NCBI RefSeq assembly: GCF_011045215.1
Contig: NZ_CP049201.1
From: Escherichia coli
GTDB taxonomy: Bacteria; Pseudomonadota; Gammaproteobacteria; Enterobacterales; Enterobacteriaceae
DNA: 64,000 bases
Strand: one strand, 5' to 3'
Below are positions 29,787 through 41,903 of this stretch, piece by piece. Made by a program: the position numbers and the translations under genes. Position 1 is the first letter of the stretch. Every line of letters begins with the position of its first letter. Under the pieces are notes generated by a model, which did not search any database, was not told the origin of the DNA, and worked only from the letters and a program-made list of their open reading frames with translations.

Positions 29787-30032
29787 ATGTTCAGGAAAAG
29801 ATGTTTATTATGTTACCCGGTACTGACCGTGTTATTCTGTATTACATCCTGTGTTCCGCCAGATGAAGCGATTTACAGCGGCAGGGAACAGATTATAACA
29901 GGAGGGGCAGGTACACCGATATATAAAGAGGACAGTAAAGGACATCAGAAGCGCGATATACGAATGGAACGAATCAGGGACCATGGGTGTGAAGATAACA
30001 GTACAGACTGTGGCAGACCATTTGGCTGGTAG
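29787..30032 (+). CDS. Small putative lipoprotein
   Basis: ORF 29745..30032; internal Met gives MFRKRCLLCYPVLTVLFCITSC with lipobox-like ITSC; weak RBS. Confidence 0.3.
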   Translation: MFRKRCLLCYPVLTVLFCITSCVPPDEAIYSGREQIITGGAGTPIYKEDSKGHQKRDIRMERIRDHGCEDNSTDCGRPFGW

Positions 30033-30206
30033 TTATTGTCAGGAAGCGTCTGGTGTTTATTATTTTTATGCACACGTCGTGGCAGGGGATTAACAGAAGA
30101 TGATTTCTGATATGTGTTATTCCTGATTTTTCTCAGGGTTGCGCCGGGTGCTCAGGATATATAGCCAGGAGAATTCTTCGGGAAGAGGAGAGCCTCTTAT
30201 TTGTTA

Positions 30207-31451
30207 ATGAGAAAAGCAGAAGTGAATGACTCTTTCATCACAAAAATCCTGACAGGTAATAACGTTCTGCGTGCTGCAATTGCCCGCATTGAGTGGGTTT
30301 TTGAAACATTTCCGTCGGTATGTCTGTCTTTTTCAGGTGGAAAGGATTCCACCGTACTGTTCCATCTTGTGGCAAATGTGGCCCGCAGGAAAAAACGTCG
30401 ATTCTCTGTACTGTTCATTGACTGGGAAGCCCAGTACCAGTGTACCGTTGAACATATTCAGAAGATGCGGAATATGTACGGGGATGTGACGGAGACCTTT
30501 TACTGGGTGGCACTTCCCCTGACCACGGTAAACGGTGTCTCACAGTTTCAGCCGGAGTGGATATGCTGGGAACCTGGTGTGACCTGGGTCCGTCAGCCAC
30601 CGGAAGAGGCCATTACGGATATGGCGTATTTTCCCTTCTACCGGTATGCCATGACCTTTGAAGAATTTGTTCCGGCATTTTCTTCCTGGTTTGCCGGTAA
30701 CCGGTGCGGTGTGGCGATACTGACTGGTGTCCGTGCGGATGAATCCCTCAACCGCTTTATGGGACTGGTGTCTCAGCGTAAGCTCAGATATGCCGATGAT
30801 AAACCCTGGACCACGGCATCACCTCAAGGGTTTTACTACACCATGTATCCATTGTATGACTGGAAAGCCCGTGATATCTGGATATATAACGCCAGAACCC
30901 GTGCCATCTACAATCCCCTGTATGACCTGATGTACCGTGCCGGTGTGCCGTTACGTAACATGCGTGTCTGTGAGCCTTTTGGCCCGGAACAACGTAAGGG
31001 GCTGTGGCTTTACCATGTTCTGGAGCCGGAAACCTGGGCCAGGATGTGTGAGCGGGTGTCAGGGGCTGCCAGTGGGGCGCGTTATGCCAATGAAAGCGGT
31101 GCCTATTTTGCCCTGCGTAAACGTATATCAAAACCGGCTCATCATACCTGGCGCAGCTATGCGATGTTCCTGCTGGATGTGATGCCGGAAAGAACGGCAG
31201 AACATTACCGTAACAAAATTGCTGTCTACCTGCGCTGGTATCAAACGCGGGGCTTCCCGGACGATATCCCGGATGAACAGGAAAATGACCTGGGCTGCCG
31301 GGATATTCCGTCCTGGCGACGTATCTGTAAGACACTCATAAAGAATGATTTCTGGTGCCGGACCCTCTCCTTCAGCCCGAACAAACCCCGGCACTATGAA
31401 CGTTACCTGCAGCGTATGAAAGAAAGGAGGAAGGAATGGGGGATTCTGTGA
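30207..31451 (+). CDS. ibrA: PAPS-reductase-like (PP-loop ATPase) protein, IbrA-like
   Basis: ORF 30201..31451; PP-loop motif SFSGGKDS near N-terminus; paired with a ParB-like gene downstream. Confidence 0.8.
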   Translation: MRKAEVNDSFITKILTGNNVLRAAIARIEWVFETFPSVCLSFSGGKDSTVLFHLVANVARRKKRRFSVLFIDWEAQYQCTVEHIQKMRNMYGDVTETFYWVALPLTTVNGVSQFQPEWICWEPGVTWVRQPPEEAITDMAYFPFYRYAMTFEEFVPAFSSWFAGNRCGVAILTGVRADESLNRFMGLVSQRKLRYADDKPWTTASPQGFYYTMYPLYDWKARDIWIYNARTRAIYNPLYDLMYRAGVPLRNMRVCEPFGPEQRKGLWLYHVLEPETWARMCERVSGAASGARYANESGAYFALRKRISKPAHHTWRSYAMFLLDVMPERTAEHYRNKIAVYLRWYQTRGFPDDIPDEQENDLGCRDIPSWRRICKTLIKNDFWCRTLSFSPNKPRHYERYLQRMKERRKEWGIL

Positions 31452-32074
31452 CAGCGGAGATACTGGGTAACATGATTCGTCAGTACTTCAGCCAGGAGCG
31501 AGCAGAAGAAGAGACCATACAGGCTCTGAATCATCTGCGCAGGGTGCTGCATGAGGTCAGTCCTTTTGCACAGGAGCCTGTGGACTGTGTGCTGTGGGTG
31601 AAAGCGGATGAGGTGGTGGCCAATGATTATAACCCCAATGTCATGGCACCGGGTGAGAAAAAACTGCTGAAACATTCACTGGAGCAGGATGGGTTCACGC
31701 AGCCTGTGGTTGTCTCGGAAGAGAAGGAGCATTATCTGGTCGTGGATGGTTTTCATCGTCAATTACTGGGCAGGGAAGCAGGTACGGGAAAACGTCTGAA
31801 GGGCTGGTTGCCAGTGACCTGTATTAATCCGGACAGAAGGGGGCAGGCCTCACGTATTGCTGCGACCATTCGACATAACCGGGCCAGGGGGAAACACCAG
31901 ATAACCTCAATGTCTGATATTGTCAGAGACCTGTCACGTCTGGGCTGGACGGATGAACGCATTGGTACAGAGCTGGGGATGGACCAGGATGAAGTGCTGA
32001 GACTGAAACAGATTAGCGGGCTGACGGAACTGTTTCAGGAAGAAAATTTCAGTCAATCCTGGACTGTTAATTAA
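31436..32074 (+). CDS. ibrB: ParB-like nuclease-domain protein, IbrB-like
   Basis: 212 aa; ParB/Srx-type motif ...HYLVVDGFHRQ... and ...IRHNRARG...; overlaps ibrA 3' end. Confidence 0.75.
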   Translation: MGDSVTAEILGNMIRQYFSQERAEEETIQALNHLRRVLHEVSPFAQEPVDCVLWVKADEVVANDYNPNVMAPGEKKLLKHSLEQDGFTQPVVVSEEKEHYLVVDGFHRQLLGREAGTGKRLKGWLPVTCINPDRRGQASRIAATIRHNRARGKHQITSMSDIVRDLSRLGWTDERIGTELGMDQDEVLRLKQISGLTELFQEENFSQSWTVN

Positions 32075-32244
32075 TCGTAATGTTCCGGGGACCTCATCTT
32101 TCACAGAAATATTCTGTTCATTAGCATTCCGGTATTCGTATAACTTCTTTCTGTGGAGAGTAAACAATGCCCAGGATGCGATGGACGCTTGATCAGAAAA
32201 AACATCACGTTGCCGCATGGCGCGCAAGCGGCCTTACCCGTGAA
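32074..32244 (+). repeat. ~170-bp direct repeat, copy 1 (IS-end-like sequence plus first 26 codons of an HTH transposase)
   Basis: Near-identical to 34339..34508 (one 1-nt indel); both contain ATGCCCAGGATGCGATGGACGCTTGATCAG... Confidence 0.8.
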
Positions 32245-32342
32245 CAGTACTGTGAACTTTACGACATTCCGTTTAAATCCCTGCGCCAGTGGCCGCAGGA
32301 TGTCGCAAAAGCCGAAAAACGGCTCTTCCGCAACCTGGGTTG
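32167..32342 (+). pseudogene. Truncated HTH transposase OrfA (IS66/IS3-like), 58 codons
   Basis: MPRMRWTLDQKKHHVAAWRASGLTREQYCELYDIPFKSLRQW...; too short for an intact orfA; not in ORF track (below size cut-off). Confidence 0.5.
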
Positions 32343-32439
32343 AGATTTTCATGCCAGTGGACTCATGACCCTCTGCCTGAGTAGTTCAAATCCGGCTCGA
32401 CTGCAAAATGGCATCTGAATCGATCGCAGTTTGGCATTC

Positions 32440-33929
32440 CATATCCTTACCCATAAATCCGAGTGATGTTATTCTGTTGATAAATTAACCATAATTTAGA
32501 GGAACTATGGAAAACTGGGTTATTAAGGAGCTGGAATCTCTGAATGTTGGTGATATCAGGCTCGAAAAGCGAATAAAGCACGTTCTCAGTGTGCTTAGCC
32601 GTTCACCAAAGGAAAGTATTCCCGTATCCTGCCGTACCTGGAGTGAGACAAAAGCTGCTTATCGTTGCTTTTCCAGTGATAAAATTTCAGCCGATAAAAT
32701 CATGGCTCCCCATAAGAAAAATATCATCGAAAGGACTAAACAGTTTAAACGGGCTCTGGTTTTACAGGATACGACTGAACTAAATTATTCTGGTCAAAAA
32801 AAGAAACAGGGCGTCGGTCCCAGACGACATGAAAATGAGCGAGATTTGTTTATTCACCCTCAATTGGTTATAAGTGATTCAGGTATTTGCTTAGGGGTTT
32901 ATGATGATTATCAATGGTTCAGAAAAGAACTCAAAACTCAGAAACAAAGTCGTAAAGAAATAACTAATGATTCACTTCACAGGAAACATATCAGTGAGAA
33001 AGAAACAGGACGGTGGATAGAAGGATATAAAAAAGCAACAGAACTGGCTAGGTCCTGTCCTGATACCCAGATAATTTCTGTTTCAGACCGTGAAGGTGAT
33101 ATTTACGACCTCTTTGAGAGTGCAGAAAATGAAAGTGGGATAAAGGCTGACTGGCTCGTAAGAATGAAGAGCATTAACCGGGCTATACTGAATTCATCAG
33201 GAAAAAGAGACTCATTACTCCTGAATGAAAAAATGATGCAGATTTTGCCACAGCAGATAATTGAGTTTACCCTTCCGGAAGGACGAGGACAACCTTCCCG
33301 CAAAGTCCAGCAGGAGCTACGCTTAGCAAGGTTGACGCTACATCCACCCACCGGTCGAAGAGGAAAGTTACGTTGTTCTCCGGTAACGGTAACTGTATTA
33401 CTTGCAAAGGAAATAAATGCTCCAGAAAGTGTCCAGCCATTAGTATGGTGGCTAATGAGTAGTGTACCTCCAGAAAAGCTGACGGAACCCGCACAGCTTA
33501 TTCAATGGTATTTATTACGCTGGCAGATTGAAGTTTTCTTTAAGGTATTAAAAAGCGGATGTCAGGTTGAGAAATTACAACTTGAGACATTTGAACGCAC
33601 AAGGAACTGTCTGGCCTTATACCTTATAATCTCATGGAGAATACTTTATCTTAGCTCATTGTATAAAATGGTTCCGGAGGAACCCTGTGATTTAATTTTC
33701 GAAAAGAAAGAATATGAGTATCTCTGGATATTGGTAGAGAATACGCCTCCACCTGAAAACATACCGAATATAAGAACGGCGGTTTTAATGCTTGCAAGAT
33801 TAGGAGGATATCTGGCAAGAAAAAATGATTCGCCTCCAGGCCCTAAGACTATATGGTCAGGATTAACACAATTAATGCTGTCAATTAATGCCATAGAAAT
33901 AGCCCAGAAAACTTGTGGGTAAGGGTATG
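32440..33929 (+). mobile_element. Intact IS4-family (IS50/Tn5-like) insertion sequence with 9-bp target duplication TTGGCATTC
   Basis: Imperfect terminal inverted repeats CATATCCTTACCCATAAAT (32440) vs CATACCCTTACCCACAAGT (rc of 33911-33929); identical 9-mers at 32431-32439 and 33930-33938. Confidence 0.8.
32507..33922 (+). CDS. IS4-family DDE transposase
   Basis: 471 aa; signature YLLRWQIEVFFKVLK (Y-x2-R-x3-E-x6-K) typical of IS4/IS50 transposases. Confidence 0.9.
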   Translation: MENWVIKELESLNVGDIRLEKRIKHVLSVLSRSPKESIPVSCRTWSETKAAYRCFSSDKISADKIMAPHKKNIIERTKQFKRALVLQDTTELNYSGQKKKQGVGPRRHENERDLFIHPQLVISDSGICLGVYDDYQWFRKELKTQKQSRKEITNDSLHRKHISEKETGRWIEGYKKATELARSCPDTQIISVSDREGDIYDLFESAENESGIKADWLVRMKSINRAILNSSGKRDSLLLNEKMMQILPQQIIEFTLPEGRGQPSRKVQQELRLARLTLHPPTGRRGKLRCSPVTVTVLLAKEINAPESVQPLVWWLMSSVPPEKLTEPAQLIQWYLLRWQIEVFFKVLKSGCQVEKLQLETFERTRNCLALYLIISWRILYLSSLYKMVPEEPCDLIFEKKEYEYLWILVENTPPPENIPNIRTAVLMLARLGGYLARKNDSPPGPKTIWSGLTQLMLSINAIEIAQKTCG

Positions 33930-34032
33930 TTGGCATTCGAATCGATCATGATTTGGCATCCATCTCCGATCACAGTTTGGCATCACAATCGATCACGATT
34001 TGGCACGCTTCCGATCATTGATTGGCATCCTG
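33930..34032 (+). repeat. Tandem array of ~23-bp GATC-containing repeats (consensus ...TTTGGCAT...CGATC); a further unit lies at 32405-32439 on the other side of the IS4 element
   Basis: Successive units ...tttggcatccatctccgatc / acagtttggcatcacaatcgatc / acgatttggcacgcttccgatc...; array is split by the IS4 insertion. Confidence 0.6.
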
Positions 34033-34345
34033 CCAGTCACTCCGGGAATTAACTCTTTTCGCCACAGTCTTCATTGCCGTGTTTAAACCAATGGAGACGG
34101 CAATGTCCAGAAAGAGAAAATCCAGGAGCACTATGGAAACCTGTTTTAAGATCCTTCAGCTCAAGTTCGACCAGAAGCTGACTAACCGTTGTATCGGGCT
34201 GACATTACACATCAGCGCCTCAACCGTTTTTGAGGTTCTTGCACGCTTCAAAGCCTCTTCTCTGTCATGGCCATTACCTGCTGATATATCCCATGACACG
34301 CTGGAGAAACTCATTTTTCCGCCCAAAGACACCTTTGCATCGTAA
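34022..34345 (+). pseudogene. N-terminal fragment of an HTH transposase (possibly IS21-family IstA-like)
   Basis: ...MSRKRKSRSTMETCFKILQLKFDQKLTNRCIGLTLHISASTVFEVL... HTH-like; truncated where the ~170-bp repeat copy 2 begins. Confidence 0.35.
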
Positions 34346-34508
34346 TGTTCCGGGGACCTCATCTTCACAGAAATATTCTGTTCATTAGCATTCCGGTATT
34401 CGTATAACTTCTTTCTGTGGAGAGTAAACAATGCCCAGGATGCGATGGACGCTTGATCAGAAAAAACATCACGTTGCCGCATGGCGCGCAAGCGGCCTTA
34501 CCCGTGAA
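34339..34508 (+). repeat. ~170-bp direct repeat, copy 2
   Basis: See copy 1 at 32074..32244; here the transposase reading frame diverges after codon 26 and is followed by an IS110-family element. Confidence 0.8.
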
Positions 34509-40552: not shown

Positions 40553-41065
40553 TCACTCGTTACATAACTTCTGTCCGGACTCACCATGCCGCTGTTTACG
40601 CTTCTCATTCAGTATCATCAGCCGGGTTTCTGCCTCTTTCTGCTCCTGTGGTGTCACTTCGCCGCATGGCTGCCCTTTCAGGTCGTAACGGGCGCCACCG
40701 GCCATTAACGCACGGTAATAGCGTGGGGACTGTACATAAGACGCCACCGCCGCACGTAATGCACCTGTACCAAATACCTGTTTTCTGAGGGTGATATCCT
40801 GTATCAGGTCGTCAGCTATCCCCACTTTAATTGGCTTCGGATTTTCACGGTTGAATAACTCAGGCCAGAGCTCCACAAGACGATTAATACGCTTACGATT
40901 TTTGCGCTGGCGTTTTGTCATATGCCGCCACGGTGTTTTATTCGCAGGCTTCTGTCTGTCATTCACTTGTGGTGGTATCCGTCCTTTGTGTGCTGTGTTC
41001 GTTTTATCCTGCTGTGGCTTAGCAAAAATCCCCTGCGGTTTACGGTTAATGGTCAGCGTTACCAT
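40553..41065 (-). CDS. ProQ/FinO-domain RNA-binding protein
   Basis: ORF 40553..41257; preferred start Met 41065; C-terminal ...PIKVGIADDLIQDITLRKQ...ALRAAVASYVQSPRYYRALMAGGARYDLKGQPCGEV... aligns with ProQ N-terminal (FinO) domain. Confidence 0.75.
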   Translation of the reverse strand: MVTLTINRKPQGIFAKPQQDKTNTAHKGRIPPQVNDRQKPANKTPWRHMTKRQRKNRKRINRLVELWPELFNRENPKPIKVGIADDLIQDITLRKQVFGTGALRAAVASYVQSPRYYRALMAGGARYDLKGQPCGEVTPQEQKEAETRLMILNEKRKQRHGESGQKLCNE

Positions 41066-41903
41066 CAATACTTTTACCTTATGCTGTCGTAAAAAATGGA
41101 ATCTCATCCGGGACATTTTCCGGTGGATATAAGACAGCCCGGTGTCTGTATTGTTCCTGTCACTTACGATGAGTGCATTTGTAATCAATAAATATCGGGG
41201 GTGACGGTCATCCCGGAACAAATGACTGAAAACGGCGTCAAAGTTACAGGAAAACACCGTTTATCGACACCGGACAAAAGAGCGTTGTCGGTATCCGGCT
41301 CAAAAGCAGGAATAACAATCAGCGTCATGGCGTGGTGAATGCCGGTGCCAGGTAGTCAGCAGGTAATTATTGATGGCAAGACCAAAAGGTGCGTTAAACA
41401 AACGAACCCTGTCAGTGGTGAATATGGTACAGCCCGGTGAGGTAAAATATTTTTCACTTGAACAATTTTTAAAGAACCGGAAACGAACCAAAATGGGGCG
41501 TCGTTCCCGGAAGAACTCATCTCAGACAGAGGGCCAGGAACAAAAACAGTGTGACGGAGTAAAGGACCGGGAGCTTACCGGTAATTCAGCACCGGCAGAA
41601 CAATCTTTATGCCACGTATACTCCGGATGTTCACTTATCAGCGGTCATGGCTGAATACATAGTTGTGCTGGTGATATTGATGATGTTCTGTCATGGGGAT
41701 GGCTGGTGTGTTTTGATAATCCGTAACTTGTATGCCCGCACAGAGCTGTTTCATCTGGTGGATATGACAGTGATGAAATCATGTTGTACCGCTGTTAAAA
41801 ACAGTCGTTCAGTCCTTTATGTTACCCGTTTTGGTAACAATCAGTTGGTCATGGACGTGTGAACCATCTGTGCTTCCATTGAATTTTATGGACTGATAAA
41901 GTT

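Follow-up and report, generated by a model that had tools for sequence, protein, structure and literature searches.

An intact ibrA-ibrB gene pair in a plasmid-type island of Escherichia coli, a mobile two-gene cassette that may specify an ATP-dependent, DNA-directed complex

The overlapping gene pair ibrA-ibrB, which encodes an enzyme-like protein together with a putative DNA-binding protein, is located at positions 30207-32074 of a 64,000-nucleotide stretch of the Escherichia coli contig NZ_CP049201.1 (assembly GCF_011045215.1), which was analyzed as a whole and is termed the window in the following. In an initial annotation made from the sequence alone, the two products were assigned to IbrA and IbrB, described as regulators of the immunoglobulin-binding eib genes. 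IbrA combines a PP-loop domain related to phosphoadenosine phosphosulfate (PAPS) reductases with a C-terminal DUF3440 domain, and IbrB is composed of a ParB/Srx-fold domain and a helix-turn-helix (HTH). The features of the pair are as follows:

30207..31451, plus strand: ibrA, 414 amino acids from the ATG, a protein resembling PP-loop ATP pyrophosphatases, with a PAPS-reductase fold and a C-terminal DUF3440 domain
30201, plus strand: alternative TTG start of ibrA, six bases 5′ of the ATG
30327..30350, plus strand: SFSGGKDS PP-loop, residues 41-48 of IbrA according to the translation
30948..31394, plus strand: DUF3440 region of IbrA, residues 248-396 (Pfam), helical in the AF2 secondary structure and specific to the family
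31425..31430, plus strand: Shine-Dalgarno sequence AGGAGG of ibrB, within the 3′ end of ibrA and 5 nt 5′ of the ibrB ATG
31436..32074, plus strand: ibrB, 212 amino acids; a helical hairpin at the N-terminus is followed by a ParB/Srx-fold domain and, at the C-terminus, by an HTH
31745..31759, plus strand: DGFHR motif of IbrB, residues 104-108, at the position of ParB box II (GERR) and of sulfiredoxin GGCHR
31871..31897, plus strand: RHNRARGKH motif of IbrB, residues 146-154
31901..32032, plus strand: C-terminal helical HTH region of IbrB, residues ~156-199, in which the segment LGMDxDExLRLKQ is near-invariant

The locus is an intact copy of ibrA-ibrB, ordinary for E. coli and already known. The exact protein sequences of both IbrA and IbrB are present in public collections, and both fall into 90%-identity clusters with widespread E. 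coli proteins named IbrA or IbrB-like (RefSeq, UniRef and a phage record). The nearest public sequence, 99.8% identical, is plasmid A of the bovine E. coli strain C5, where the genes are named "phosphoadenosine phosphosulfate reductase" and "IbrB-like domain-containing protein." The assignment made in the initial annotation is confirmed by domains, motifs and gene order and by 92 and 87% identity of IbrA and IbrB, respectively, to the proteins of a coliphage PhiR5_2 record labelled IbrA/IbrB. The IbrA/IbrB proteins of strain ECOR-9 (Sandt, Hopper & Hill 2002) agree with the window pair in gene order, sizes and domains, orthology being deduced from database naming; in contrast to the ECOR-9 system, the window copy resides in a plasmid-type island beside an AraC-family gene and insertion sequence (IS) elements and not in an island of the pheV/PerC type. 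A second pair is formed by YbdN and YbdM of E. coli K-12 (b0602/b0601), which share 58 and 55% identity with IbrA and IbrB, respectively, over the full length, are encoded in the same order by overlapping genes, and have kept every motif. The ybdNM genes have a fixed place in the K-12 chromosome, flanked by ybdL and by citR, the gene of the LysR protein CitR/YbdO that represses them, whereas ibrAB is the mobile paralogue found in multiple contexts.

The two genes overlap, the ibrA stop codon being located 16 nt past the ibrB ATG, and this arrangement together with the AGGAGG sequence inside ibrA implies that ibrA and ibrB would be translationally coupled. In other genomes, too, ibrA and ibrB repeatedly overlap or abut. 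Homologues of IbrA were searched in a protein library clustered at 50% identity, which gave 1820 matches at E values up to 0.001, and representatives of these were aligned; 79 loci were retrieved with the IbrA alignment from contigs representing one genome per species, and in 74 of them IbrA was called as an open reading frame (ORF). In 64 of these 74 loci, an IbrB homologue is encoded by the very next gene downstream on the same strand, often overlapping. The paired loci belong to Enterobacteriaceae, Bacteroidota, Verrucomicrobiota, Firmicutes, Alphaproteobacteria, and Campylobacterota; further members of the set are a locus from Actinobacteria and one from an Asgard metagenome-assembled genome. 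In viral contigs of IMG/VR, an IbrB-family gene lies within a few genes of ibrA in 71 of 79 cases and is directly adjacent, on either side, in 52. The pairing of IbrA and IbrB is ancient and obligate.

A relative of IbrA occurs in 224 phage records. In virulent Streptococcus and Lactobacillus phages, a helicase-like gene, ibrA, and ibrB follow each other in this order between the lysis and early regions; in mycobacteriophages of the cluster B type, ParB-like genes flank a gene for a PAPS-reductase-like protein immediately before the gene of the large terminase; and one Bacillus phage has a ParB-like gene, a PAPS-reductase-like gene, and a DNA methyltransferase gene in succession. A third partner is a compact SNF2-family ATPase of ~400-420 amino acids (Pfam SNF2-rel_dom and Helicase_C) with weak similarity to DpdE, DrmD, and ZorD. 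Its gene is situated directly 5′ of ibrA in 21 bacterial loci and is found in 20 of the 79 viral loci, i.e. in about a quarter of the loci, and also in phages of lactic acid bacteria. Small proteins are encoded beside the pair as well: a conserved protein of ~141 amino acids occurs in 23 IMG/VR viral loci, in 16 of them directly 5′ of ibrA and often just after a ParB-like gene (one example at 3384-3809 of a retrieved viral locus), a distinct protein of 142 amino acids in eight viral loci, and a similar-looking one of ~138 amino acids in five Bacteroidota loci. Neither the ~141- nor the 142-residue viral neighbour gave a Pfam or PHROG match.

In IbrA, Pfam recognizes a PAPS_reduct domain split into two parts (residues 40-94 and 171-246), the PP-loop family, and DUF3440 (248-396). 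Within an alignment of 166 IbrA homologues, the PP-loop is nearly fixed, with S43, G45, K46, and S48 each conserved in at least 160 sequences, G44 in 156, and D47 in 158; D72, E74, G174, R176, E179, S180, R183, and R253, which include the motif GxRxxES..R, are also essentially invariant. PP-loop and invariant residues together represent the signature of a substrate-adenylating ATP alpha-beta pyrophosphatase, and by signature and fold IbrA is predicted to be an ATP alpha-beta pyrophosphatase or adenylyl-transferase. The best sequence and fold matches of its catalytic domain are CysD, the small subunit of ATP sulfurylase, and flavin mononucleotide (FMN) adenylyltransferase, PAPS reductase also being among the closest folds; the structural matches listed are all enzymes of the PP-loop/PAPS-reductase fold, much shorter than IbrA and with a TMq of ~0.3. 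CysD and the eukaryotic FMN adenylyltransferase (the PAPS-reductase-like domain of flavin adenine dinucleotide synthase) are adenylyl-transferases that do not need a catalytic cysteine. IbrA differs from both by a 50-residue aromatic-rich insert (W100, W121, W127), by the 165-residue DUF3440 domain, and by the lack of a CysN-type or riboflavin-pathway partner. Domain fusions were uninformative: Pfam analysis of ten long homologues revealed one ABC/AAA fusion and a weak GNAT match.

C255 of IbrA (RVCEPFG) is located where CysH has the catalytic ECGLH, and the respective column holds cysteine in 72 of 166 homologues (43%) and alanine in 63 (38%); in no column of the alignment is a cysteine conserved above 77%. 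In view of the missing family-wide cysteine, the common chemistry of the IbrA proteins cannot depend on a thiol or an Fe-S centre in the way of CysH, DndC, or TtuA, and IbrA thus does not qualify as a true PAPS reductase or as an enzyme of the DndC type.

IbrB is more constrained than IbrA, with a mean column identity of 47% in an alignment of 36 diverse homologues from many phyla. In this set, D104, G105, and R108 of the DGFHR motif are invariant and H107 is conserved in at least 90%, R146, N148, R149, A150, G152, and H154 of the RHNRARGKH motif are invariant, and the motifs N-x-YNPN and E74..L78..S81..G86 are near-invariant. The HTH segment LGMDxDExLRLKQ hardly varies either, and E. coli, Clostridia, Bacteroides, and phages share an almost invariant recognition region. 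DGFHR aligns with the GERRW segment of Noc/ParB, the HTH is similar to the DNA-binding domains of KorB, ParB, and sigma region 4, and a further match of IbrB is to phage ParB-methyltransferase fusions (phrog_498), in their ParB-like part. A ParB-type C-terminal dimerisation domain was not found in IbrB, which ends ~13 residues past the last HTH helix. The cytidine triphosphate (CTP)-dependent clamps ParB, KorB, VirB, and Noc likewise consist of a ParB N-domain fold followed by an HTH, but IbrB differs from them by DGFHR in place of GERRxR, by the absence of the C-terminal dimerisation domain and of a ParA partner, and by its obligate PP-loop enzyme partner. In type, DGFHR is closer to the motifs of sulfiredoxin (GGCHR), SerK, and SbnI, which are ATP-using enzymes of the ParB/Srx fold, although in IbrB the catalytic cysteine of sulfiredoxin is replaced by Phe106 and an HTH is added.

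The initial annotation had found no eib-like gene in the window and remarked on the lack of an obvious target locus. The first part is borne out: a 767-amino acid YadA-family query from a related plasmid gave a best tblastn E value of 0.26 in the window, and NCBIfam scans of the other large ORFs of the window revealed no YadA/Eib-type adhesin. On plasmid CP010123, the closest relative of the island, a YadA-family trimeric autotransporter of 767 amino acids is encoded 4.4 kb downstream of ibrB, beyond IS66 copies (26984-29287 of the retrieved stretch); it was rejected as an Eib protein, being a generic trimeric autotransporter with marginal similarity to EibD (36 bits, E value 2e-8). For the second part, the known biology has to be considered. 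The title of Sandt et al. (2002), as cited in later papers, places the eib genes on prophages and ibrAB on a separate island, i.e. in trans, and enhanced Eib expression, from that study as summarized in PMC7649339, is the only IbrAB phenotype that has been reported.

The distribution of ibrAB in E. coli was determined by megablast with the two genes against 5426 complete genomes, a place being counted when at least 80% of them was covered. The pair is present in 2031 genomes (37%), among them Nissle, EDL933, and O25:H4 strains; a single genome has as many as four such places, and plasmids account for 79 of them overall. The flanks represent at least five unrelated contexts, namely a pheV-type island with a PerC-family regulator gene after ibrAB, the EDL933 context behind an AAA-protein gene near cah, the Nissle context beside genes for a deacetylase, a glycosyltransferase, an acetyltransferase, and YaiO and a TonB-dependent receptor, a phage context beside antirepressor genes, and the context of the window behind a Rob-like AraC gene. 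Their common part consists of only the two coding sequences (CDSs): homology between contexts begins 36-78 nt inside ibrA and ends a few bases short of the ibrB stop codon, and the regions upstream of ibrA in six E. coli contexts are unrelated and AT-rich. Among alleles of five contexts, dN/dS values of 0.05-0.11 for ibrA and of 0.03-0.11 for ibrB were obtained, and both E. coli genes are under strong purifying selection. The pair is a horizontally mobile, bare two-gene cassette. In the commonest chromosomal context (E. coli M217, RM11911, and EDL933), ibrAB is followed by the PerC-family regulator gene and a gene for a 214-amino acid hypothetical protein, and in M217 and RM11911 another 214-amino acid hypothetical protein is encoded immediately 5′ of ibrA. 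According to a published transcriptome study of Shiga toxin-producing E. coli, ibrB, perC, and the next gene are induced together upon adherence to epithelial cells.

In the flanks of 92 dereplicated loci, no 9- to 12-nt word shared as an operator or parS-like site was clearly above the shuffled level in an exact-word test, which is an insensitive one; the words obtained from the module flanks are AT-rich, of low complexity, and at or near the shuffle level. Because the targets are in trans on prophages, the module is present in 37% of the genomes, and its contexts are unrelated, the absence of eib from the window is uninformative. A missing neighbouring eib gene is expected and not anomalous, no target in cis is needed or expected, and the puzzle of the missing target locus dissolves.

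Several DNA modification systems offer themselves for comparison. Phosphorothioation by DndC/DndB likewise pairs a PP-loop ATP pyrophosphatase with a ParB-superfamily protein. In PMC10853773, DndB is described as a member of this superfamily which binds ATP and regulates transcription, and DndC as carrying a 4Fe-4S cluster on three cysteines plus a cysteine dyad. IbrA, having no conserved cysteine, possesses neither the triad nor the dyad, and genes for DndA, DndD, and DndE were found neither near the window pair, which is bordered by an AraC-family gene and IS elements, nor among the conserved neighbours; a Dnd-like reading was rejected on the basis of cysteines and partners. BREX type 4 with BrxP and the Dpd system with the ParB-like ATPase DpdB and the SNF2-type DpdE also employ PP-loop or ParB-like proteins plus SNF2-type helicases, but PglZ, a cysteine desulfurase, TGT/DpdA, and the other components of these systems are absent from IbrAB. 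Searches of the accessible literature for ibrAB, ybdNM, DUF3440, and PAPS reductase combined with ParB returned annotations only and no mechanistic paper.

The pairing, the conservation of the motifs, the HTH, the two nucleotide-handling folds, the company of SNF2 and methyltransferase genes, and the residence on mobile elements lead us to infer, with a rough probability of 0.4, a DNA-directed complex in which IbrB would bind DNA and a nucleotide, IbrA would adenylate a DNA-associated substrate, and gene activation would be a consequence. IbrA and IbrB would be made in coupled amounts and work together, in trans. IbrB, by means of its nucleotide-binding ParB/Srx domain and its HTH, would bring the complex to DNA, and IbrA would spend ATP on adenylating and thereby chemically altering the substrate, most likely a base or a backbone position of the DNA, often assisted outside of the enterobacteria by the SNF2-type translocase. 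Phage copies might serve to mark or protect the phage's own DNA, and copies on islands, plasmids, and prophages might change the state of silenced, AT-rich, horizontally acquired genes, which would appear as the activation of prophage eib genes. A more far-reaching proposal, which we put forward only tentatively, is that IbrA-IbrB, with an optional SNF2 translocase and small accessory proteins, constitutes an uncharacterised and phylogenetically very broad system by which mobile elements modify nucleic acids at the expense of ATP; chemically, it would differ from Dnd, Ssp, Dpd, BREX, and methylation in that its PP-loop adenylation step would involve neither a thiol nor an Fe-S centre.

A number of points weigh against the DNA-directed complex. 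DNA modification by IbrAB is a prediction, and with no conserved cysteine in IbrA the chemistry of Dnd, Ssp, or TtuA cannot be transferred. DUF3440 offers no functional clue, as the C-terminal 165 residues are confidently helical but matched no solved structure. PADLOC v2 contains no model of a modification or defence system that matches the pair, the hits being a weak and partial one of IbrA to BrxP (1e-7, residues 25-104, the PP-loop region) and a weak one to DndC (2e-4), with none for IbrB. Neither the window nor any enterobacterial locus has the SNF2 partner or the small accessory proteins, and the exact-word test mentioned above did not reveal a conserved parS-like site next to the module. 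Finally, covalent chemistry is not required for a ParB/KorB-like HTH protein to activate transcription, VirB and KorB being examples. The view of the initial annotation, that the domain combination resembles DNA modification or nuclease modules more than a classical transcription factor pair and that its biochemistry is open, therefore stands in part: near-invariant motifs of catalytic type, shared by Proteobacteria, Firmicutes, Bacteroidota, and phages, the SNF2 ATPase, and one methyltransferase speak for the modification-like character, a nuclease has no specific support, and the KorB/sigma-region-4-like HTH of IbrB fits a DNA-binding regulatory role equally well.

The last point leads to the main alternative, a pure transcriptional switch, which we consider somewhat less probable than the DNA-directed complex. 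In the manner of the plasmid-encoded proteins VirB and KorB, which regulate horizontally acquired genes, a nucleotide-bound IbrB, loaded via its HTH, would displace H-NS from AT-rich acquired promoters and act as an anti-silencer, the DNA not being covalently changed, while IbrA would make or consume the nucleotide ligand or modify IbrB. The KorB-like fold of IbrB, the AT-rich promoters, the co-induction of the PerC neighbour on adherence, and the control of ybdNM by CitR, with ybdNM adjoining the H-NS-regulated citR, are in line with such a function. It is difficult to reconcile, however, with the replacement of the CTP motif GERRxR by DGFHR and the absence of a clamp-type C-terminal dimerisation domain, and an almost invariant HTH recognition region with no shared site near the loci would be odd for an operator-specific regulator of unrelated elements. 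It also leaves unexplained the strict need for a PP-loop enzyme, and virulent phages of lactic acid bacteria and mycobacterial phages carry the pair with an SNF2 ATPase or beside a terminase gene. A role as a regulator of the island itself, controlling the upstream fimbrial operon, the shf-capU-virK-like, outer-membrane, DUF4056, and Rob-like AraC genes, so that the target locus would be in the window, appears quite improbable. The block from the deacetylase gene to ibrB (22.2-32.2 kb) is indeed kept together, at 98-99% identity, on several plasmids of E. coli and E. fergusonii from sheep and cattle, and the Nissle pair likewise lies beside deacetylase, glycosyltransferase, acetyltransferase, and YaiO genes, but linkage on closely related plasmids can be explained by co-inheritance, the flanks are unrelated in most genomes with the two CDSs alone conserved, and a shared upstream motif was not found.

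The residence of the pair on islands, plasmids, prophages, and phages would also suit a conflict system, either anti-phage defence or phage/plasmid anti-defence, with nucleotides or invading DNA as its target; it might deplete nucleotides or employ a ParB/Srx nuclease, with gene activation as a side effect. Defence-looking neighbours are present in some loci (either an AAA protein or the combination of DEAD helicase, ATPase, and TerB-N protein), PMC10853773 discusses ParB-superfamily proteins as NTPases and nucleases in conflict systems, and a 2026 preprint lists candidate systems in which a nucleoid protein is paired with a PAPS reductase and a ParBc protein. We nevertheless consider this function rather improbable in view of the missing (IbrB) or marginal (IbrA) PADLOC matches, the fixed position of the paralogue ybdNM between ybdL and citR in K-12, the lack of catalytic signatures of a toxin or nuclease apart from the generic ParB fold itself, and the lack of any reported phenotype of this kind. 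The database name, in turn, suggests a genuine sulphate-assimilation enzyme, that is, a PAPS reductase or a "cysH" auxiliary metabolic gene. Against the curated models of CysH, CysD, and APS reductase, IbrA reaches only 30-38 bits compared to cut-offs of 154-400 (for CysH, 36 bits vs. 254 with TIGR02057 and 34.6 vs. 154 with NF002537). On these scores and the non-conserved cysteine, this assignment was rejected; it is exceedingly improbable, as the CysH-position cysteine is confined to 43% of the members, the canonical SGGKDS ATP-pyrophosphatase loop is kept instead, the ParB-like partner is obligate, and the neighbours are SNF2 and methyltransferase genes and not cys genes.

Apart from the pair, the following features of the window are relevant for its immediate borders and its origin:

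8242-9780: IS66-family transposase gene, between the two plasmid-matching blocks
22177-25149: three co-directional genes for a PgaB/IcaB-like polysaccharide deacetylase, a GT4 glycosyltransferase, and a VirK/YbjX protein
30036..30063, plus strand: best sigma-70-like promoter match 5′ of ibrA (TTGTCA-16-TATTAT), a consensus match only
32075..32244, no strand assigned: right-hand boundary, an IS accessory-ORF region that begins directly after the ibrB stop codon, with a second copy at 34339-34508, around the IS4-like insertion

The number of sigma-70-like sites upstream of ibrA is not above the shuffled expectation. A terminator-like hairpin at 30183-30198 was taken as a chance occurrence, since it coincides in part with the ribosome-binding region and such sites are just as frequent as in shuffled sequence. 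Between the AraC-family gene and ibrA, a small unannotated ORF (29784-30032, ~82 amino acids from the ATG) has an N-terminus resembling a lipoprotein signal (…LFCITSC…); the RefSeq annotation of this region is empty in the 99.8% identical plasmid. On the other side, an ORF of 58 amino acids that resembles transposase accessory proteins is located just past ibrB (32167-32343). The start of this ORF lies in an exact direct repeat of 171 bp (27 + 145 nt, with a one-base spacing difference; 32074-32244 and 34339-34508), the copies of which flank ~2.1 kb with an IS4-like transposase gene (32507-33922). Words of the type CGATC..TTTGGCA form a short tandem series at 33943-34028.

The left part of the window is of plasmid type. 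Positions 1-8200 match the 214-kb plasmid A of E. coli C5 at 99.7%, and positions 9473-32226 are co-linear with it at 99.2%; the co-linearity with CP010123 stops at 32226. Besides an operon for chaperone-usher fimbriae, this part contains genes for an MFS transporter, an amidohydrolase, a 774-amino acid AryK-like AraC protein, an EAL protein, three secreted proteins of unassigned family, a PapI-like protein, outer-membrane-like and DUF4056 proteins, a Rob-like AraC protein, and IbrAB. The AraC-family protein of 774 amino acids (3928-6252) matches the model of the Staphylococcus regulator AryK over its full length (E value 3e-93, below the curated cut-off) and has an architecture unusual for E. 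coli. Directly past the fimbrial operon, at 18579-21483, three consecutive ORFs of ~315 amino acids each have a signal-peptide-like N-terminus; they gave no NCBIfam match, and BLASTP found no similarity between them. The genes at 22177-25149 resemble the shf-capU-virK cluster of the virulence plasmids of Shigella and enteroaggregative E. coli.

Past ibrB, the IS accessory-ORF region split by the IS4-like element is followed by IS110 and IS66 transposase genes. Beside this IS cluster, the ORF at 39281-39919 matches only the C-terminal 60% of porins of the OmpC/PhoE/OmpF type (positions 149-368 of the 368-residue profile) and is probably a truncated porin gene. A 234-amino acid protein with a FinO/ProQ-type RNA-chaperone domain is encoded on the minus strand at 40553-41257, between the IS cluster and type VI secretion genes. 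From ~40.6 kb to 64000, the window matches chromosomal type VI secretion loci at ~97%, the IS110 and IS66 genes lying in between. The window may represent an IS-mediated join of plasmid-type and chromosomal DNA or a piece of a large hybrid replicon.

For the window itself, little is at stake, as the pair is common and already annotated and the missing eib gene is no anomaly; it is fair to leave the biochemistry open for the whole family and not for this locus in particular. The family is a two-protein machine distributed from E. coli to Clostridia, Bacteroides, and many phages, which with a single phenotype described in 2002 is a mechanistic orphan. The database name "PAPS reductase" is probably misleading and feeds into virome counts of auxiliary genes of sulphur metabolism. 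If true, a modification system would explain the activation of prophage eib genes, the function of ybdNM in K-12, and the presence of a DUF3440 clade among the "cysH" genes of phages. Working out the reaction could reveal either a new type of DNA marking or a new route by which mobile elements switch on silenced genes.

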